Source of the DNA: PVC group bacterium
GTDB taxonomy: Bacteria > GCA-001730085 > JADFSZ01
Assembly (NCBI GenBank): GCA_022560555.1
Contig: JADFSZ010000096.1
Span: 1-6,788 of the forward strand
Reading direction: 5' to 3'
Length of the DNA stretch: 6,788 nt
Below are positions 1-6,788 of the stretch, piece after piece (the stretch's first letter is position 1; every line of letters begins with the position of its first letter). The position numbers and the translations under genes were made by a program. A model generated the notes under the pieces. It ran no database searches. It worked only from the letters and a program-made list of their open reading frames with translations, and was not told the DNA's origin.

Positions 1-1
1 T

Positions 2-517
2 TTAGCGAATAATCGTAATGTTGTTTTGTTCCCTGAGAAGATTCAAGGGAAATATCTTGCCCTGCATCGACCTTTTGGTCATGGGTGGAGCGAAGGTGAC
101 ATTTGGATGGCGACCTCTCCTGATCTTCTTCATTGGGGCGAGTACAAAATTTTGATGGGGCCGCGTCCCGGATTTTGGGATCATTCTAAGATTGGAGCCG
201 GAGCTCCTCCGTTCAAAACAGAGCACGGATGGATTTTGATTTATCATGGAGTTGATGATTCTGAAAAATATGCCTTAGGGATTGTTGTGCTGGATTTGGA
301 GAACCCCTTGAAAATATTAGGACGATCACAGGAGGCTCTTTTGCAGCCGGAAACATTGTATGAGCGAGAAGGTTTTTTTGGAAATGTTGTATTTACCTGC
401 GGAGCGATCCAAAGAGATCATAATCAAATCGATATCTACTATGGTGCATCGGATGAGGCTCTTTGCCTCGCTTCATTGAGTGAGAAGGAGTTGATGGAAC
501 ATGTCAAAAAGCATTAA
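2..517 (+). CDS. GH130 family (DUF377) beta-mannoside phosphorylase/glycosidase-like protein, 5'-truncated by the window edge (C-terminal ~171 aa present)
   Basis: The frame is open from nt 2 (LANNRNVVLFPEKIQGKY...), so the ATG at 26 is internal and the gene starts upstream of the window. Family hallmarks are present: NRN-x2-LFPEK, HRP, GFWD, GxGxPP, GWILIYHGV, LDLENP, VVFTCGA, YYGASD. It is clearly paralogous to the two complete GH130 ORFs downstream. Stop TAA is at 515-517. Confidence 0.85.
   Translation, partial: LANNRNVVLFPEKIQGKYLALHRPFGHGWSEGDIWMATSPDLLHWGEYKILMGPRPGFWDHSKIGAGAPPFKTEHGWILIYHGVDDSEKYALGIVVLDLENPLKILGRSQEALLQPETLYEREGFFGNVVFTCGAIQRDHNQIDIYYGASDEALCLASLSEKELMEHVKKH
485..490 (+). 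promoter_or_regulatory. Shine-Dalgarno (AAGGAG) for the GT4-fusion gene, embedded in the 3' end of the upstream GH130 gene
   Basis: AAGGAG lies 10 nt upstream of ATG 501. The ATG lies 17 nt inside the upstream CDS, a geometry typical of translational coupling. Confidence 0.6.
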
Positions 518-2756
518 ACGGTCTATTGCCTTTCTGGGTAATTATCTTCCCCGAAAATGCGGCATCGCGACATTTACAAAAGATATTTGTGAAGCGGTTT
601 CTAGAGAGGTAAGCAAAAACTGCAATGTGTATGCCATTGCTATGACCAATCGCTCTGAAGGTTATGATTATCCCGAAAGGGTTAAATTTGATATTCGGGA
701 TCAAATCGTTTCTGATTATGAGAAAGCCGCCGACCTTGTTAATACCAGCAAGGTAGATGTTGTGTGTGTTCAACATGAATATGGAATTTATGGAGGAGAA
801 TGGGGGGAATACCTTCATGTGTTTCTCCGGCAGGTGAAAGTTCCGGTTGTAACGACCCTTCATACGGTTCTTGAAAAATCTATGGACGAAACCCATGAAA
901 AAGTTTTTCGTGAACTGATAGCAAGAAGCGATCGCTTGATTGTTCTGGCCGAAAAAGCCATCCCGATGTTGAAGAATCGAGGGGTTCCTGAAGAAAAATT
1001 AATTTATATCCCGCACGGGATTCCGGATTTCTCACGATCTGATTCAAAAAAACTTAAGGAAAATCTGGATTTATCCGGCAAGACCATGATTTTGACTTTT
1101 GGACTTTTGGGGCCGGATAAAGGTATTGAATATATGATTGAAGCGATGGGGGCTCTTGTAGAGCGTTATCCCGATCTTGTTTATATTGTTTTAGGCGCGA
1201 CTCATCCGGAAATTATTAAACACTATGGAGAGGAATACCGTCACAAACTCATGCGGCAAATTGAGAGTCTGGGTTTGCAAAAACATGTTTTTTTGTATGA
1301 TCGTTTTGTTGAGTTAGAAGAGCTTTGCGAATATATTCATGCGGCTGATTTTTATGTTATCCCTTATTTGAATCGCGAACAAATAGTTTCCGGAACCTTG
1401 TGTTATGCTTTGGGAGCCGGAAAGGCGGTGATCTCGACGCCCAGTCTGTGCGCGGAAGAACTTCTTCGGGATCAAAGAGGTGTTTTAGTTCCTTTTAAAA
1501 ACGCGAACGCGTTGGCAAAAGCGCTAGAAAATTTATTTCAAGATGCAGATGCTTGCGAGGTGATGCGGGATAAGTCTTATAAATTCGGGATGAAAATGAG
1601 ATGGCCGAATGTGGCAAAAGAATATCTTGACGTATTCCGTTCGGTTCAAAAAGAACGCCCATTGATTGTTTCGGAACGAAAAAAGGCAAAAGAGCCGATC
1701 CTCTTATCCTCTAAATTTCCGTTTCCAAAATTAGATCATATCATGACATTGACAGACGATTTTGCGATGTTGCAGCATGCTCGTTATACCATTCCGAACT
1801 ATGATCATGGATATTGTGTTGATGATAACGCGCGGGCCATTGTTGTCGCGACAAAATTTTACCGGATTTTTAATGAAGGATCTGCCCTGTCTCTTCTGAA
1901 TAAATATCTTGCGTTTGTTTTTTATGCTCAAAGAGAGGATGGCTTGTTTCGGAATTTTTATGATATGAGAAAGCAGCCCCTTGATGAAATCGGATCCGAT
2001 GATTGCCAGGGCCGGTGTCTTTGGGGATTAGGGTATGTTATGGCTTATGGGCCTGCTCGTTTTGGAATGGCAGCAAAATCTTGTTTTAAAAAAGTGCTGC
2101 CTCATACCCAAAAATTTGAAATAAGAGGAATCGCTTTTTCAATTCTAGGACTTTATTATTACTTGCTCCGCTTTCCGGATGATGAGCAGATTAAGTCTCT
2201 CATGACGATCTTAGCCGAGAGCCTAGTCCGATCTTATCAAGAAACTTCCGATGAAAAATGGTTTTGGTTTGAAAATTCGTTAACCTATGCCAATGGCTTG
2301 TTGCCCGTGGCTTTGTGGGTCGCTTCTTACTCGCTTAAGCAAAAGAAATATCAAGACGTGGCGCAAAAGGCCACGGTCTTTTTGCGTCAGCAGTCCGTAA
2401 GAAACGGACATCTTTCGTTGATTGGGTGTAAAGGATGGCATTCTAAAGAGAACCAGAAAAAAGCGCAGTATGATCAACAGGCCATTGACGCGCTATGGAT
2501 GGTGGAACTCAGTAAATTTGCCTATCGATATACAAATGATGAGAATTATTTGAGTTTAATGAAAACATCCGTTGATTGGTTTCTCGGAGAAAATGACCTT
2601 TCGGTTGCGCTTTATGATCGGGTGACAGGAGGTTGTTATGACGGTTTAACATCTAGAGGAGCGAACCTTAACCAAGGGGCGGAGAGCACCCTCAGTGCTG
2701 TGATCGCACTTTTATCCATTGCGGAAATGGCTTATCAGCAGTCAGAGATGAAATGA
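501..2756 (+). CDS. Two-domain protein: N-terminal GT4 (Glycos_transf_1, GT-B fold) glycosyltransferase fused to an uncharacterised helix-rich C-terminal domain (possible alpha/alpha-barrel, six-hairpin-like)
   Basis: 751-aa ORF with an SD site. The N-terminus IAFLGNYLPRKCGIATFTKDI matches the 'PPRxCGIATFT' start I recognise from a GT4 subfamily. A GT-B C-lobe follows (ILTFGLLGPDKGIEY...YIVLGATHP...ADFYVIPYLNREQIVSGTLCYALGAGKAVISTP...AEELL). Residues ~409-745 form a second domain with no GT motifs. Confidence 0.85.
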   Translation: MSKSIKRSIAFLGNYLPRKCGIATFTKDICEAVSREVSKNCNVYAIAMTNRSEGYDYPERVKFDIRDQIVSDYEKAADLVNTSKVDVVCVQHEYGIYGGEWGEYLHVFLRQVKVPVVTTLHTVLEKSMDETHEKVFRELIARSDRLIVLAEKAIPMLKNRGVPEEKLIYIPHGIPDFSRSDSKKLKENLDLSGKTMILTFGLLGPDKGIEYMIEAMGALVERYPDLVYIVLGATHPEIIKHYGEEYRHKLMRQIESLGLQKHVFLYDRFVELEELCEYIHAADFYVIPYLNREQIVSGTLCYALGAGKAVISTPSLCAEELLRDQRGVLVPFKNANALAKALENLFQDADACEVMRDKSYKFGMKMRWPNVAKEYLDVFRSVQKERPLIVSERKKAKEPILLSSKFPFPKLDHIMTLTDDFAMLQHARYTIPNYDHGYCVDDNARAIVVATKFYRIFNEGSALSLLNKYLAFVFYAQREDGLFRNFYDMRKQPLDEIGSDDCQGRCLWGLGYVMAYGPARFGMAAKSCFKKVLPHTQKFEIRGIAFSILGLYYYLLRFPDDEQIKSLMTILAESLVRSYQETSDEKWFWFENSLTYANGLLPVALWVASYSLKQKKYQDVAQKATVFLRQQSVRNGHLSLIGCKGWHSKENQKKAQYDQQAIDALWMVELSKFAYRYTNDENYLSLMKTSVDWFLGENDLSVALYDRVTGGCYDGLTSRGANLNQGAESTLSAVIALLSIAEMAYQQSEMK
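519..1649 (+). other. GT4 glycosyltransferase domain (approx. residues 7-383 of the fusion protein)
   Basis: Boundaries were judged by eye from the motif content listed for the parent CDS. The domain ends at ...WPNVAKEYLDVFRSV, a typical GT-B C-terminal helix. Confidence 0.7.
1725..2735 (+). other. Unassigned C-terminal domain (approx. residues 409-745), preceded by a Lys-rich linker (nt ~1650-1724, ERPLIVSERKKAKEPILLSSKFPFPK)
   Basis: Repeated helix-like segments rich in aromatic residues, with conserved-looking acidic or polar motifs: GYCVDDNARA, WFWFENSLTYANG, YDQQAIDALW, NLNQGAESTLSAV. The fold assignment is inference only. Confidence 0.45.
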
Positions 2757-2759
2757 AAT

Positions 2760-2765
2760 AAGGAG
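2760..2765 (+). promoter_or_regulatory. Shine-Dalgarno (AAGGAG) for GH130 paralog 2
   Basis: AAGGAG lies 3 nt before ATG 2769 and 6 nt before ATG 2772. The spacing favours 2772 slightly, so the start is ambiguous by one codon. Confidence 0.6.
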
Positions 2766-2768
2766 TTC

Positions 2769-3719
2769 ATGATGCGTCAGACTTCAGGGCGGGATCTTGT
2801 TCATCGATTTGAGAAAAACCCTATTATTGAATTGGAGGATCTTAGTTTCAGCTGCCTTAATATTATGAATGCAGGGGCCGTTAAGGCCGGAAATCAATAC
2901 ATTCTTCTTGTCCGCATAGAAACAATGAGAGGTCACTCAGTTATTTTCGTCGCAAGAAGTACGAATGGCATGAATTTTGTTTTGGACAAAGAACCCATTC
3001 TGGGCCCTGCGACGGAAGGTGAGTTTCAAAAATATGAAGGACATGGTGTGGCGGACCCGCGCATTACCTATTTGGACGGAGTTTATTATATCGTCTATAC
3101 AGCTTTGTCTCGGAATGGAAAACGCTTGGTTTTAGCAAAGACAAGTGATTTTCAGACGATCGAAAAACTTGGCCTCATTTCAGAGCCCGATAATCATAAC
3201 GGGGCTTTATTCTCGAGAAAAATTAATGATTGTTATGTAAGGCTTGAGAGACCGTTCGAGGGAGGCAATATTTGGATTTCTTATTCTAAAGATTTATATT
3301 ATTGGGGCCGGTCTTCTGTTGTGATGTCTCCGCGGGGACCCGGGTTTTGGGATGAGAGTCGTGTGGGGTGTGCTGTTCCTCCGCTTGAAGTGGAAGAAGG
3401 GTGGCTTCTCATTTATTATGGGGTCAAAGAAACGTCGGGAGGTCCTCTCTTTCGTCTGGGAGTAGCCATGTTAGACAAAGAGGATCCTTCCCGGTTGATT
3501 GGACGGGCCTCTTTCCCGATTCTCTCTCCCCGGGAATCTTACGAACGGGTTGGAGATCATGGGAATATGGTATTTTCCTGCGGCGCGATTGTCGAGAATA
3601 AGGAAATCATGCTCTACTATGGAGGTGCTGATATGGGGATTAACTTGGGGACCGTGTTGCTGTCAGAGTTAGTGGAGGAATGTTTAGGTGAGGAGGGGCG
3701 TGAGAATGGTTCGTTTTAG
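2769..3719 (+). CDS. GH130 family (DUF377) beta-mannoside phosphorylase/glycosidase-like protein, paralog 2 (divergent at several family-conserved positions)
   Basis: 316-aa ORF with a strong SD and full-length GH130-like layout: FEKNPII...GHSVIF...GVADPRITYLDGVYYIVYTA...LFSRKI...RLERP...NIWISYSKDL..WG...GFWD...VPP...GWLLIYYGV...FRLGVAMLD...PILSP...YE..G...NMVFSCGAI...YYGGAD. No signal peptide is evident. Confidence 0.88.
   Translation: MMRQTSGRDLVHRFEKNPIIELEDLSFSCLNIMNAGAVKAGNQYILLVRIETMRGHSVIFVARSTNGMNFVLDKEPILGPATEGEFQKYEGHGVADPRITYLDGVYYIVYTALSRNGKRLVLAKTSDFQTIEKLGLISEPDNHNGALFSRKINDCYVRLERPFEGGNIWISYSKDLYYWGRSSVVMSPRGPGFWDESRVGCAVPPLEVEEGWLLIYYGVKETSGGPLFRLGVAMLDKEDPSRLIGRASFPILSPRESYERVGDHGNMVFSCGAIVENKEIMLYYGGADMGINLGTVLLSELVEECLGEEGRENGSF
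3691..3696 (+). promoter_or_regulatory. Shine-Dalgarno (AGGAGG) for GH130 paralog 3, inside the 3' end of paralog 2
   Basis: AGGAGG lies 9 nt upstream of ATG 3706. A second SD-like GGAGGA at 3673-3678 lies 9 nt upstream of the alternative GTG at 3688, so the start is not fully resolved. Confidence 0.5.
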
Positions 3720-4644
3720 AAGAGACATTCTGAAAAGGTGGGAGAGAAACCCTATTATTAAATTAGAGGATATTCCTTTTCGCTGTAATACCGTATTCAA
3801 TGGGGCTGCTACAAAATTTAACGATCAATATATTTTTCTGCTCCGGGTTGAAGATCTGAAAGGTCATTCCGTCATTTTAAAAGCTCATAGTGAAGATGGA
3901 TATCATTTTACTGTCGGGAAGGAACCCTGTATGTATCCTTGCGATATCGAGCCGTACAAAACCTACGAGGAACGAGGCGTTGAGGACCCCCGGATCATTT
4001 ATCTCGAGGGCATTTATTACATTATGTATACAGCCTATTCCCGGTACGGAGCTCGTATTGCTCTGGCTAAGACAGAAGATTTTGAGCATTACGAGAGAAT
4101 CGCGATAGTCTCTGAGCCGGGCAACAAAGATGGGCTGCTTTTTCCAAGAAAAATCAATGGCCGGTATGTCCGGCTCGATCGTCCGATTTCCGGTGGGATT
4201 GGCAATATTTGGATCTCTTATTCTAAAGATTTGATTTTTTGGGGACATTCAAAACTTGTTGCTGAGATTCGCCGTGATTTTTGGGACTCCTACCGTATCG
4301 GAGGTTCGGTTCCTCCTATTGAAACCGAGCAAGGTTGGCTTGAGATTTATCACGGTGTTAAAATGACCAATTCCGGACCCATTTACCGCTTGGGGGTATT
4401 TCTTTTGGACTTAGAAAATCCGGAAAAAATGCTTGGGCAATCCGATATCCCGATTCTTTCTCCGCGGGAACCCTACGAGCGTATCGGGGATGTGAATAAT
4501 GTTGTTTTTTCTTGCGGAGCGATTGTCGAGGAGAATGGTGATATCAAGGTTTACTATGGCGCTGCCGATACCTGTATTTGTGTGGCGGAAGGGACCGTGA
4601 AAGAGCTGGTTGAATTTTGTTTGGAGGAAAAGAGTCTTTTTTGA
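3706..4644 (+). CDS. GH130 family (DUF377) beta-mannoside phosphorylase/glycosidase-like protein, paralog 3
   Basis: The ORF track starts at GTG 3688. I prefer ATG 3706 (MVRFRRDILKRWERNPII...) because it has an AGGAGG SD and its N-terminal length matches paralog 2 (MMRQTSGRDLVHRFEKNPII...). Motifs include GVEDPRIIYLEGIYYIMYTA, LFPRKI, RLDRP, NIWISYSKDL, GWLEIYHGV, YRLGVFLLDLENP, VVFSCGAI and YYGAAD. Roughly half the residues match paralog 2 by eye. The start overlaps the paralog 2 stop by 14 nt, or by 32 nt if GTG is used. Confidence 0.88.
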   Translation: MVRFRRDILKRWERNPIIKLEDIPFRCNTVFNGAATKFNDQYIFLLRVEDLKGHSVILKAHSEDGYHFTVGKEPCMYPCDIEPYKTYEERGVEDPRIIYLEGIYYIMYTAYSRYGARIALAKTEDFEHYERIAIVSEPGNKDGLLFPRKINGRYVRLDRPISGGIGNIWISYSKDLIFWGHSKLVAEIRRDFWDSYRIGGSVPPIETEQGWLEIYHGVKMTNSGPIYRLGVFLLDLENPEKMLGQSDIPILSPREPYERIGDVNNVVFSCGAIVEENGDIKVYYGAADTCICVAEGTVKELVEFCLEEKSLF

Positions 4645-4655
4645 GCTTTTAAGTA

Positions 4656-4664
4656 TGATATAAT
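4656..4664 (+). promoter_or_regulatory. Candidate sigma70-type extended -10 promoter element (TGaTATAAT) for the radical SAM / glutaredoxin-like unit
   Basis: This is a perfect TGnTATAAT match in the only sizeable intergenic region (4645-4753). There is no good -35 at 17-nt spacing: CTTTTT sits at 4636-4641, and TTGAGC at 4641-4646 is only 12 nt away. Extended -10 promoters can work without a -35. It would give a leader of roughly 80 nt. Confidence 0.35.
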
Positions 4665-4743
4665 CGTAGTAACTGGCTAATAGAAGAGACGCGAAAAAGC
4701 CAAGAAGAAGATAAAAACGTTTATTTGGAAATTTATAACAAAC

Positions 4744-4748
4744 AAGGA
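4744..4748 (+). promoter_or_regulatory. Shine-Dalgarno (AAGGA) for the radical SAM gene
   Basis: AAGGA overlaps the first ATG (4748) and lies 5 nt upstream of the second ATG (4754), which favours 4754 as the start. Confidence 0.5.
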
Positions 4749-4753
4749 TGGAA

Positions 4754-6316
4754 ATGAAACGCCTGAAAATATGTCTGATTAATCCAAAATTTGAGCCTTC
4801 CTATTGGGGCTTCGAATATGCATTGCCGCTTTATCCGGGGAAAAGGACATGCACGATGATCACGGGAGCCTTGCCCTATCTCGCGGGTCTTACTCCGGAT
4901 CACGAGGTTTATCTTCTTGATGAAAACGTGGAGGAGATTGACTTCGCGTCTCTCAAGGACTTTGATATCGTCGGTGTAACCGGCATGGTAGTCCAAAAGA
5001 AGCGCATGATGGAAATTCTGCGAAAGGTGCGTGAAATGAAGATCTTTACCATCGTTGGCGGTGCCTACGCTTCGGTTGATGAGAAACACTTCGACGGTTA
5101 CTGTGACGTCCTCTTTTCTGGTGAGGCTGATGAGACCTGGCCGGAGTTTATTGAATGTTTCGCATCAGGAAAAGAGTACAAGAAGTTTTACGAACAAGAA
5201 AATCGTACAGATATGACGACGGTTCCGAGTCCCCGATTTGATCTGCTTAAGGTTGACCGCTACGCTTCAGGAGCTATTCAGTTCTCTCGTGGTTGTCCCT
5301 TTCAGTGTGAATTCTGTGACATCATTATCACCTTTGGCCGCCGTCCAAGAACCAAGAAACCGGAGCAGCTTATTGACGAGCTCGATGACATGCGCAAGGC
5401 AGGCTTCTTCTCCTGCTTTATCGTTGATGATAATTTTATTGGAAACAAAAAGGCTGCGAAAGAGCTGCTTCGGCTCATGATTCCTTGGCAAAAGAAACAT
5501 AATTATCCGTTACGGATGTCGACCGAGGCAAGTATCAACTTGGCCGACGATGCTGAATTGCTTGATTTGATGTATCATGCGAATTTTCGGGCCGTCTTTA
5601 TCGGCATTGAGACGCCAAAGATGGAATCGCTAAAGGAGACAAAGAAATTTCAGAATATAGCAGGTGACTCCATGGAAGCTAAGTTAGATCGCATCTATAA
5701 AGCCGGTATAAATGTAAGGGCCGGATTTATTGTCGGATTTGATAATGATGACAAGAATATTTTTGAAGAGCAATACCAGTTTATTCAGAACAATGGAATT
5801 CTTATGGCCATGGTTGGTACTCTCATTGCGATACCGAAAACCCCGCTCTATAAACGCATGGAGAAGGAAGGGCGCCTCAGACTCGATGATCCAAATTGTA
5901 ATATCGCACCCAAACAAATGACACCGGACGAACTCCAGCAGGGTTACTGGGAACTCCTCAAGCGGCTCTACACACCGCAAGCCTTTATGGACAGGTATTT
6001 TAAAACTTTTCGATTTCCGGAATTCCGGCATAAACGGGCGGAAATATGTGACAAAGCCAACGAAGGAAAAATGATTCCGACTCTTGGATTTGGCTTGGTT
6101 TTGTTGTGGAATCTGTTTTGGACGCTGTTCAAAGACCGTAGTTTAAGAAAGGTGGGGGATGTTTACATTCGTAATTTTTTCAAGAACAGTCTGCGTTATC
6201 GACGAGACGTTATAGGCTTTGCGCAATTCATGAATGCATGTGTCACTCATTGGCATTTCTACAAATTTACACGAGAAGGCACAGAAGGCAGACTGCGTCT
6301 TTTCAATTCAGGCTAA
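4754..6316 (+). CDS. B12-binding domain-containing radical SAM protein (class B rSAM architecture) with DUF4070-type C-terminal region; substrate unknown
   Basis: The N-terminal Rossmann-like B12-binding-type region reads KICLINPKF...EVYLLDENVEE...DIVGVTGMV...FTIVGGAYAS. The radical SAM cluster motif is FSRGCPFQCEFCD (Cys codons at 5294, 5306, 5315), followed by core strands FIVDDNF, FIGIETP and GFIVGFDND. The C-terminal ~120 aa resemble the DUF4070 tail found in HpnP-like and many orphan B12-rSAMs. The alternative start at ATG 4748 adds only 2 aa. Confidence 0.85.
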   Translation: MKRLKICLINPKFEPSYWGFEYALPLYPGKRTCTMITGALPYLAGLTPDHEVYLLDENVEEIDFASLKDFDIVGVTGMVVQKKRMMEILRKVREMKIFTIVGGAYASVDEKHFDGYCDVLFSGEADETWPEFIECFASGKEYKKFYEQENRTDMTTVPSPRFDLLKVDRYASGAIQFSRGCPFQCEFCDIIITFGRRPRTKKPEQLIDELDDMRKAGFFSCFIVDDNFIGNKKAAKELLRLMIPWQKKHNYPLRMSTEASINLADDAELLDLMYHANFRAVFIGIETPKMESLKETKKFQNIAGDSMEAKLDRIYKAGINVRAGFIVGFDNDDKNIFEEQYQFIQNNGILMAMVGTLIAIPKTPLYKRMEKEGRLRLDDPNCNIAPKQMTPDELQQGYWELLKRLYTPQAFMDRYFKTFRFPEFRHKRAEICDKANEGKMIPTLGFGLVLLWNLFWTLFKDRSLRKVGDVYIRNFFKNSLRYRRDVIGFAQFMNACVTHWHFYKFTREGTEGRLRLFNSG

Positions 6317-6330
6317 CTTCACATTTAACT

Positions 6331-6337
6331 AAGGGGA
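6331..6337 (+). promoter_or_regulatory. Shine-Dalgarno-like AAGGGGA for the glutaredoxin-like gene
   Basis: The purine-rich SD ends 3-4 nt before ATG 6341. There is only a 24-nt gap after the rSAM stop, consistent with co-transcription. Confidence 0.5.
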
Positions 6338-6340
6338 ATT

Positions 6341-6697
6341 ATGAAATATATTCGAAAAATATTAGGCGCCCTTGTTGTATTCTTTGATGCCATAACGCGT
6401 CCAAAGCCGATCGAGAGATCCGTTGATGCTCAAAGCGATGTGGACCGCCGATCAAAGAATTTATCTTTGTATCAGTTTCATGCCTGTCCGTTTTGTGTCA
6501 AAGTGCGCCGGGCGCTTCACAAGTTGAATGTCAACATTGAACTAAGGGACGCCAAAACCGACATAATCGGAAATGAATTATTGAAAGAAGGCGGCAAACG
6601 TAAAGTGCCGTGCCTGCGTATCGAGCAAGACGGTGGGGTTCAATGGATGTATGATTCAAACAGCATCATTCAGTATCTTCAAACGGCTTTTAATTAA
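6341..6697 (+). CDS. Glutaredoxin-family thiol-disulfide oxidoreductase-like protein (CPFC active site) with a ~40-aa N-terminal extension containing a hydrophobic segment
   Basis: The thioredoxin-fold signature is LSLYQFHACPFCVKVRRAL (CPFC at nt 6485-6496), GGKRKVPCL (cis-Pro VP motif) and WMYDSNSIIQYL. The N-terminal KILGALVVFFDAITRPKP extension is conserved in a bacterial glutaredoxin-like subfamily as I recall it. Confidence 0.8.
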   Translation: MKYIRKILGALVVFFDAITRPKPIERSVDAQSDVDRRSKNLSLYQFHACPFCVKVRRALHKLNVNIELRDAKTDIIGNELLKEGGKRKVPCLRIEQDGGVQWMYDSNSIIQYLQTAFN

Positions 6698-6788
6698 TAA
6701 GTCCGAACTTGGCTCAGCCAGCGACTCCTTATCTTTTCCTCAAAATCAAAGGCTTCCAGCTGTGAATAAACCGCTCGTTTGCATCGCA

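Follow-up and report, generated by a model that had tools for sequence, protein, structure and literature searches.

The β-1,2-mannoside phosphorylases Teth514_1788 and Teth514_1789 of Thermoanaerobacter belong to the bacterial members of glycoside hydrolase family 130 (GH130) that have been characterized biochemically while their physiological substrate is open, and, according to the authors of that work, no source of 1,2-β-oligomannan is known for Thermoanaerobacter (PMC4264767). Transcriptomics has placed Teth514_1785 and Teth514_1786 in one sub-operon (PMC3751872). This sub-operon is inducible by ethanol. In another described system, the glycosyltransferase family 4 (GT4) α-1,4-mannosyltransferase ManT is accompanied by MmpH, an (α/α)6 endo-α-mannosidase whose cleavage products prime new chains (PMC9883506), and cyclic glucan synthase combines GT84, GH189 and GH94 (PMC10834661). 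Here we analyze a stretch of 6,788 nucleotides from a PVC group bacterium (contig JADFSZ010000096.1 of assembly GCA_022560555.1, positions 1 to 6,788; hereafter the window), in which a single uninterrupted open reading frame (ORF) of 751 residues (501..2756; all window coordinates are on the plus strand) fuses a GT4 glycosyltransferase to a C-terminal domain that belongs to no named family, among genes for GH130 enzymes. Our results identify this domain, almost certainly, as a six-hairpin (α/α) barrel, tie it with high probability to the function of GT4 and GH130 enzymes, and lead us to propose, tentatively, that it cleaves or rearranges the glycan on which these enzymes act.

The comparison with Thermoanaerobacter is instructive, as there the two halves of the window protein are encoded by separate, adjacent genes, whose products share 40% (GT4) and 39% (six-hairpin, P0091) identity with the corresponding halves. 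The Thermoanaerobacter cluster (L001) runs ABC transporter-GH5-GH130-GH130-mannose-1-phosphate guanylyltransferase-GT4-six-hairpin-ATP-grasp; this gene order equals that of the published X-514 cluster, and its two GH130 genes match Teth514_1788/1789. The pair itself, read in a related Thermoanaerobacter, matches Teth514_1786 (GT4) and Teth514_1785 (six-hairpin) by gene order and genus, not by direct sequence match. Because the halves are adjacent in Thermoanaerobacter and fused in the window, the window protein is a Rosetta-stone fusion of that pair. The two loci have in common orthologue-level relatives of both halves, located beside two GH130 genes in Thermoanaerobacter. They differ in that the Thermoanaerobacter cluster adds an ABC importer, GH5, mannose-1-phosphate guanylyltransferase and ATP-grasp genes, all of which are missing from the window, whereas the window has fused halves, three GH130 paralogues and a gene for a B12-binding radical S-adenosylmethionine (SAM) protein. 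In each of the three Thermoanaerobacter loci examined, the next gene after the stand-alone six-hairpin gene encodes a D-Ala-D-Ala-ligase-like ATP-grasp protein (L001:11104-12081).

The fold of the C-terminal domain (residues 403-751; 1707..2753) was assigned by AlphaFold2, Foldseek and a profile search against PDB sequences. AlphaFold2, run on an alignment of the domain with 66 homologues (alignment A1), returned a model with a mean predicted local distance difference test (pLDDT) score of 93.4 and a predicted template modelling (pTM) score of 0.92. The model comprises 11 long helices, arranged as five hairpins plus the last inner helix, with a short β-rich segment N-terminal of these; the sixth outer helix is apparently absent or substituted by this N-terminal β segment. 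When the model was compared with the PDB using Foldseek, the top 50 matches were all six-hairpin proteins, with template modelling (TM) scores of 0.61-0.74. The first of these was 7TEM (YPO2471 of Yersinia pestis; E 1e-15, TM 0.74), followed by cellobiose 2-epimerases, glucose 2-epimerase, mannose isomerase, N-acylglucosamine 2-epimerase (AGE) and YihS (TM 0.63-0.72, E 1e-9 to 1e-6), and after these AGE-type enzymes by GH9 and GH76. 7TEM is also the sole solved homologue found by sequence, with an E value of 1.4e-21 for the profile against PDB sequences; it is a structural-genomics entry named 'putative exported protein' with no described function.

An earlier note on this DNA, prepared from the sequence alone, had described an unassigned domain of about 340 residues at the C-terminus of a GT4 enzyme and had likened it to (α/α)6 carbohydrate-active folds. 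Both proposals are borne out: the 751-residue ORF consists of a GT4 part (residues 1-383) beyond which no Pfam or NCBIfam model matches over its threshold, and the fold is supported by the confident AlphaFold2 model, by the uniformly six-hairpin Foldseek matches, by weak Pfam signals that come solely from the six-hairpin group, and by the conservation at one end of the barrel. All six of the motifs that it had quoted (HGYCVDDNARAIVVA, GRCLWGLGY, WFWFENSLTYANGLLP, AQYDQQAIDALWMV, GGCYDGL and ANLNQGAESTLSAVIAL) are present in the protein, and the polar residues that it had listed are indeed conserved, as detailed below. The domain is thus real, but the extent given for it requires adjustment, as its ordered part begins at about residue 403 (nucleotide ~1707). 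The preceding residues 384-402 (1650..1706) form a Lys/Arg-rich inter-domain linker of sequence QKERPLIVSERKKAKEPIL, with pLDDT values below 50-70 in both the domain-only and the full-length model. Nucleotide 1650 is in frame as codon 384, and the junction reads ...WPNVAKEYLDVFRSV-QKERPLIVSERKKAKEPILLSS....

The distribution of conserved residues over the model is asymmetric. We defined a conserved position as one that is at least 90% conserved, and the N-terminal zone of a helix as positions -6 to +5. With these definitions, the polar or charged conserved positions at the N-termini of the six odd-numbered (inner) helices amount to 16 of 28, while none lies at the N-terminus of an even-numbered helix; when all 67 conserved positions are counted, they take up 25 of the 72 positions at odd-helix N-termini and 2 of the 60 at even ones. 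Fisher's exact test, comparing odd-helix N-termini with every other position, gave p = 1.4e-4. In the predicted structure, this polar conservation at one mouth of the barrel indicates a functional pocket.

Two blocks stand out within this putative pocket. The first is the DDNAR motif (D441, D442, R445; 1821..1835) at the N-terminus of inner helix 1, which is invariant in alignment A1 and whose counterpart in 7TEM and in the Serratia homologue reads IDDVARA; its D441, D442 and R445 are candidate catalytic or substrate-binding residues. In the second block (C712-x-D714-G ... N724-Q-G-A-E728-S-T; 2634..2690), an invariant Cys/Asp loop leads into the last inner helix at its N-terminus. Alignments A1 and A3 show no variation at the C, D, N, G, A and E of this block, and 7TEM and the Serratia homologue keep FDGI...NKNSGAEST but not Cys712, which is replaced by Ala; D714 and E728 are candidate catalytic carboxylates. 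Across 65 full-length fusions, D442 and E728 are invariant, and conservation reaches 90% or more at D441, E591 and D658/Q659/Q660; the residues D441/D442, E591, D658-Q660 and E728 are invariant or nearly so in stand-alone and fused homologues alike.

In terms of family assignment, residues 384-751 have no Pfam or NCBIfam match over threshold, which agrees with the statement of the earlier note that the domain could not be assigned to a named family. The lone Pfam signal for the window domain is GH88 (PF07470), which scores 13.6 bits (E 0.033) where the cut-off is 26.6 and spans profile positions 20-109 of 352. Across the 67 members of the alignment, the sub-threshold Pfam votes fall to C5-epim_C (38), GH88 (31), GH127 (9), GH76 (4) and LANC_like (1); these matches are 30-50 residues long, cover one hairpin each, and lie on different hairpins in different members, a pattern that, judged at the level of sequence, mirrors the repeat architecture and not family membership. 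GH88 was set aside, since the 31 members that match do so merely over the first ~110 profile positions and the window domain stays under the gathering score. The D-glucuronyl C5-epimerase family (PF06662) was likewise rejected: its matches cover profile positions ~28-85 of 188, they are located at residues 47-94, 191-245 and 270-298, and the window domain has none.

Further six-hairpin families were compared with the domain. GH127 enzymes such as HypBA1 are characterized by a Cys nucleophile in a Cys3-Glu zinc site and by C-terminal β-sandwich domains. The window domain has no match to the GH127 model PF07944 (9 of the 67 members have partial matches near the cut-off) and no Cys-Cys/Glu zinc site; its single invariant Cys is replaced by Ala in the 7TEM branch, and its chain ends after the barrel. 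The GH76 α-1,6-mannanases have an adjacent catalytic Asp-Asp pair (D124/D125 in BcGH76), and the window domain has the invariant adjacent D441/D442, but PF03663, found in 4 of the 67 members, aligns its profile positions 153-206 to another part of the domain; the Foldseek TM score for GH76 is 0.64. GH189, GH144 and GH162 were absent from the PDB profile matches at E<=1 and from the Foldseek top 50. No characterized member of the family was found in the literature. As far as the sequence comparisons go, the domain is a distinct six-hairpin family without a curated model.

This family is large and widespread. A word-indexed search found 2340 homologues at E<=1e-3, and an exhaustive profile search yielded 6213, 4324 and 1609 clusters at 50% identity for thresholds of E<=1e-3, 1e-10 and 1e-30, respectively; such numbers show that the region did not arise as a chance reading frame. 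Its members occur either as stand-alone proteins of 340-400 residues or as proteins of ~750 residues in which the domain occupies residues ~390-750. The 120 top-ranking relatives found with the full-length protein are all fusions, 727-822 residues long, and share 42-76% identity with it, the window's own sequence apart. Rare variants carry an N-terminal six-hairpin domain joined to a GFO/IDH/MocA oxidoreductase or to a BD-FAE / alpha-beta-hydrolase esterase (P0344, P0371), and are too few to interpret.

To describe the genomic context, we took one genome per species from at least 600 matching species and kept 80 loci. As these loci stand nearest to the query alignment, the fractions given here apply to that branch and not to the family at large. 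These loci span Planctomycetota, Bacteroidota, Spirochaetota, Acidobacteriota, Chloroflexota, Armatimonadota, Desulfobacterota, Bacillota and Bathyarchaeota. In 70 of the 80 loci, GT4 and the domain form one fusion; a further 4 loci have a GT4 gene directly adjacent, and 6 show neither arrangement. A GH130 gene is located within 10 kb in 53 loci, 49 of which have one within 3 kb. Another GT4, of 336 residues, is repeated in 31 of the 80 loci, and an unbiased clustering of all ORFs in the 80 loci found no other widely recurring family. In the Omnitrophota bacterium 'Candidatus Aadella gelida', the gene order GH130-fusion-GH130-GH130 is identical to that of the window. This consistent neighbourhood makes it highly probable that the domain is functionally linked to GT4 and GH130. 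The family includes the 'hypothetical protein' of the β-1,2-mannoside phosphorylase cluster, with ~90% of the loci examined tied to GT4 and about two thirds tied to GH130. GT4 neighbours are not discussed in the recent GH130 papers. In L024, L031 (e.g. 14203-15666), L039 and about 35 other Bacteroidota loci, many of the neighbouring GH130 proteins are ~490 residues long; their GH130 match is confined to the last ~230 residues, no Pfam model matches the initial ~250, and their genes are often on the strand opposite to the fusion gene.

A second, exported branch of the family is represented by 7TEM. A local hidden Markov model search against the Serratia orthologue of YPO2471 gave an E value of 9e-26; YPO2471-like proteins, to which NCBI gives the name 'sugar phosphotransferase', were retrieved with the 7TEM fragment, and three of their loci were examined. 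Despite an identity of only ~17% between YPO2471 and the window domain, both contain DDxAR, RxxW, WxxxxxxYxN, WxxxxN, xDGx and NxNxGAEST motifs, and the residues common to the two branches are D441, D442, R445, R505, W508, W589, Y596, N598, W693, N698, D714, N724 and E728. In contrast, the YPO2471 branch lacks D501, Q660, C712 and the N-terminal TDDxGxxQH motif of the GT4-associated branch, and its members are exported, stand-alone proteins in loci with GH13, GH130 and DUF1861, not GT4.

GH130 genes were present in all three of the YPO2471-branch loci. In Serratia (L087:2527-8657), a homologue with a signal peptide follows genes for an ABC importer, GH13, GH130, DUF1861 and an outer-membrane β-barrel; in Flavobacterium franklandianum, the homologue is part of a SusC/SusD locus with GH130 and GH13; and on the third contig it comes after an ABC importer and two GH130 genes, with a GH2/β-mannosidase-type gene and a weak GH94 match downstream. 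In two of the loci (L089 and L090), two frames share the six-hairpin gene between them, which suggests a frameshift or an error of assembly. In Leishmania, DUF1861 is encoded by a tandem array of genes on chromosome 10 (PMC3836990), and an array of GT108 mannogen transferase/phosphorylase genes has been described in Leishmania (PMC10913872); we infer that these are the same array and that DUF1861 is thus GT108-like. Taken together, the exported-branch loci suggest an undescribed uptake pathway for a glycan with α-glucosyl and β-mannosyl units. The exported member is most simply a depolymerase that feeds uptake and phosphorolysis. A periplasmic site would be expected of a depolymerase, but neither of an epimerase of the cytoplasmic type nor of an accessory domain for a GT. 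Both branches, the cytoplasmic GT4-linked one and the exported one, accompany enzymes of the β-mannoside phosphorylase type.

The fusion protein is 100% identical to MCH7589788.1, annotated as 'glycosyltransferase family 4 protein [PVC group bacterium]', and its nearest relatives, from Omnitrophota and Planctomycetota metagenome-assembled genomes, share 60-76% identity with it. As it has neither a signal peptide nor a hydrophobic N-terminus, the protein is presumed to be cytoplasmic. Its GT4 domain (residues 1-383; 501..1649), of the GT-B fold and retaining type, is covered by Pfam GT4 models over residues 34-361 (Glycos_transf_1, E 1.2e-19; Glyco_transf_4, E 1.6e-07; Glyco_trans_1_4 is also over its cut-off). 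The closest solved sequences are PimA and PimB' (E 2e-8), and in Foldseek this half matches MshA, PimB', SPS, HepE and PimA, as expected of a GT4 member. The PDB holds no entry that spans both halves according to Foldseek, where the maximum query-normalized TM score was 0.42.

The GT4 half departs from classical enzymes of the family at the donor site. The second Glu of the E-X7-E motif, which contacts the nucleotide ribose (E282 in PimA, E321 in ManT; PMC9883506), is missing, and the motif reads E-X8-Y instead (residues 289-307; window 1365..1421), so that E293 corresponds to PimA E274 and Tyr302 to PimA E282. Tyr302 is invariant across the 65 fusions, and the Thermoanaerobacter GT4 also has Tyr. 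Moreover, an invariant Leu202 stands where PimA has R196, whereas PimA K207 and G21 are retained. Judging from these substitutions, the GT4 half is atypical and its donor binding may differ from that of classical GT4 enzymes.

The reading that we tentatively prefer is that the six-hairpin domain is a glycan-cleaving hydrolase or transglycosylase acting together with its GT4 and the GH130 phosphorylases. In this scheme, the GT4 half would add an α-linked hexose to a cytoplasmic acceptor or primer, with GDP-mannose as the most likely donor because the nearest solved relatives are PimA/PimB' and a guanylyltransferase gene adjoins the pair in Thermoanaerobacter. The GH130 paralogues would reversibly add and remove β-mannosyl units via α-mannose 1-phosphate. 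The six-hairpin domain would then cleave or transglycosylate the same oligo- or polysaccharide by means of D441/D442, D714 and E728, and this action could regenerate primers, set the chain length, release the product or rearrange it. The glycan-cutting role is proposed for the fused domain because the depolymerase chemistry presumed for the exported branch is carried over to it. The data establish the fold, the conservation at one end of the barrel, the homology to 7TEM, the partnership with GT4 and the GH130 linkage in two independent branches; the enzymatic nature of the domain, its hydrolase or transglycosylase class, the sugar, the linkage and the GT4 donor are what we infer here. The suggestion in the earlier note that synthesis might be coupled to trimming, length control or priming fits the gene linkage and is consistent, by analogy, with two precedents (PMC9883506, PMC10834661).

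The precedents resemble the window locus in different respects. ManT and MmpH parallel the proposed scheme as a cytoplasmic GT4 mannosyltransferase and a six-hairpin hydrolase encoded in one cluster, but the two proteins are not fused, no GH130 is present, methyltransferases are, and there is no detectable sequence relation; the structural neighbours of MmpH are GH15 and GH125, not 7TEM or the AGE enzymes. As homologues, MmpH and ManT were rejected, since neither was detected in the PDB sequence searches, and the analogy is purely functional. With cyclic glucan synthase, the likeness is one of system logic only: a transferase, a transglycosylating accessory domain and a length-adjusting phosphorylase operate on a 1,2-β homopolymer. 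In that system, however, other families are involved and the sugar is glucose and not mannose, whereas here the phosphorylases are encoded by separate genes and the GT4, being retaining, cannot itself make the β-linkage. A link to mannosylglycerate or mannosylglucosylglycerate (GH63-like hydrolase) was also considered, and was dropped as neither sequence nor literature supported it. The domain would work like the six-hairpin accessory domains of glycan synthases without belonging to their families. A module of glycosyltransferase, six-hairpin protein and phosphorylase is of a known kind, and its components here are GT4, GH130 and a six-hairpin family that has no name; modules of unknown nature on glycosyltransferases are common, and this one is not startling to a specialist in carbohydrate-active enzymes.

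Several observations weigh against the proposal of a cleaving or transglycosylating domain. No family member has a demonstrated activity, and the closest characterized structural neighbours in Foldseek are epimerases and isomerases, not hydrolases. The conserved set also includes Tyr, Arg, Asn and His residues, which fit non-hydrolytic chemistry too. The full-length AlphaFold2 model has a pLDDT of 91.9 but a pTM of 0.60, against 0.92 for the domain alone, and thus shows no confident packing between the halves. GT4 enzymes are retaining and form an α product, whereas GH130 enzymes are inverting and act on β-mannosides, so that they cannot share one linkage. Finally, GH130 is lacking from 27 of the 80 loci, as judged from the available flanks (up to 10 kb per side, with some contigs much shorter), including those of the closest Brocadiaceae relatives, and in Rhodothermus profundi the fusion gene has no GH130 or GT neighbour, which makes the GH130 linkage frequent but not obligatory.

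The structural neighbours give rise to the first alternative, a role as sugar epimerase or isomerase like that of AGE, cellobiose 2-epimerase or mannose isomerase. The domain would then interconvert Glc and Man, or Man and Fru, at the reducing end, and thereby prepare the GT4 acceptor or dispose of the mannose released by GH130 phosphorolysis. We regard this as unlikely. It is true that the best Foldseek matches after 7TEM are AGE-type (TM 0.63-0.72) and that cellobiose 2-epimerase is a known partner of a GH130 mannosylglucose phosphorylase in mannan catabolism, acting upstream of it in the pathways of Bacteroides fragilis and Ruminococcus albus. AGE enzymes, however, have two catalytic His residues on inner helices (H248/H383 in YihS, H259/H390 in RmCE), and the domain family has no conserved His there: its conserved His are found solely at C-domain positions 30 and 43 (the latter being H426), ahead of helix 1 and thus before the barrel. 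The AGE superfamily was rejected as an assignment on these grounds and on those of sequence, as PF07221 (GlcNAc_2-epim) matches 1 of the 67 members, with an E value of 0.0058, and the identity to AGE-type structures is 9-15%. Export, as seen in the YPO2471 branch, would also be unusual for this enzyme class.

About equally improbable, in our estimate, is a non-catalytic domain that binds the acceptor or the growing glycan, or that serves as an oligomerization scaffold for the GT4 or for GH130 recruitment. The dominance of the GT fusion in the loci examined (70/80), the lack of a known activity and the conserved aromatic residues W587, W589, W693 and Y596, typical of sugar platforms, all speak in its favour; yet the invariant D441, D442, R445, D501, R505, Q660, N698, D714, N724 and E728 exceed what a binding site usually contains and are placed as in six-hairpin enzymes. 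Stand-alone members and exported members in catabolic loci are common, where a cytoplasmic GT scaffold would make no sense, and AlphaFold2 gives no fixed interface with the GT4. The last alternative, a lyase or polymer C5-epimerase-like enzyme acting on a uronic-acid glycan, or a thiol chemistry of the GH127 or LanC type at Cys712, is very improbable: the sub-threshold votes already mentioned (C5-epim_C 38/67, GH127 9/67, LANC_like 1/67), the NCBI name 'beta-L-arabinofuranosidase domain-containing protein' of the Thermoanaerobacter homologues and the invariance of Y438, Y596, R445, R505 and C712 are set against Pfam matches that are confined to single hairpins and scattered over them, neighbourhoods in which no uronic-acid genes are repeated, a Cys712 that becomes Ala in the YPO2471 branch, and the absence of both the GH127 Cys-Cys/Glu zinc site and the LanC Cys2-His site.

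Returning to the domain as a hydrolase or transglycosylase, a broader and rather doubtful extension can be formulated. The loci could encode a mannoside cycle that is endogenous, takes place in the cytoplasm, occurs widely among bacteria and also in some archaea, and is a counterpart of Leishmania mannogen or of the mycobacterial methylmannose polysaccharide. In this cycle, the atypical GT4 would prime or cap chains, the GH130 enzymes would build and phosphorolyse β-mannosyl chains, the six-hairpin domain would found a new glycoside hydrolase or transglycosylase family (endo-mannanase-like or cyclizing), and its exported YPO2471-like cousins would depolymerize the same glycan, on which other bacteria could thereby feed. 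A GT4 without the ribose-binding Glu may even use α-mannose 1-phosphate from GH130 directly, and not GDP-mannose. The relevance of the fusion lies in the fact that the question of the GH130 substrate becomes directly testable through the fusion protein, the Thermoanaerobacter homologue and YPO2471, for which a crystal structure exists, and it raises the further question of whether bacteria make their own mannogen-like reserve. If the proposal is true, a new CAZy family is very likely, and the misleading database names 'beta-L-arabinofuranosidase domain-containing', 'YyaL/SSP411' and 'sugar phosphotransferase', as well as the bare 'GT4 family protein', would be corrected.

The window as a whole contains six genes on the same strand, with tight junctions between the first four (GH130 / fusion / GH130 / GH130). 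That the flanking genes encode GH130 enzymes, as had been stated from the sequence, is confirmed by Pfam matches on all three. The first GH130 gene is represented by its 3' part (2..517), which the Pfam GH130 model matches over profile positions 160-319 of 320 (E 6e-43). Its frame is open from nucleotide 2, its 5' end is cut by the start of the window, and it shares 17 nucleotides with the beginning of the fusion gene. The fusion gene is followed after a gap of 12 nucleotides by the second GH130 gene (2769..3719; 316 residues; Pfam GH130 E 2.7e-51), whose end is overlapped by the start of the third (3688..4644; 318 residues; Pfam GH130 E 2.8e-59). The second and third GH130 proteins, both complete, share 54% identity. 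For the second, the closest NCBIfam models are β-mannobiose phosphorylases, all under cut-off, and its identity to the Thermoanaerobacter homologues of β-1,2-mannoside phosphorylases is 33-36%. The motifs NHN and IYYGV are found in the second GH130 protein, NKD and IYHGV in the third and in the Thermoanaerobacter enzymes, and NRN and IYHGV in the first. The second GH130 protein may therefore have an altered phosphate or donor site, and could act as a hydrolase or transferase, or else as a phosphorylase with another specificity.

The remaining two genes are located downstream of the third GH130 gene. The last one (6341..6697) encodes a glutaredoxin / GST-N-like protein of 118 residues with a CPFC motif and a hydrophobic N-terminus, and was not seen as a repeated neighbour in the other loci. 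Before it lies the gene for the B12-binding radical SAM protein with DUF4070 (4748..6316; Pfam matches). Among the 80 loci, 8 (L004, L025, L031, L035, L036, L039, L052 and L060) have a homologue of it no more than 10 kb away from the fusion gene. The radical SAM/DUF4070 protein may be associated with the module and may modify the glycan or the primer; in Bacteroidales operons, the order is AraC-radical SAM-cupin-fusion-GH130-GT4, with the radical SAM gene upstream of the fusion gene.

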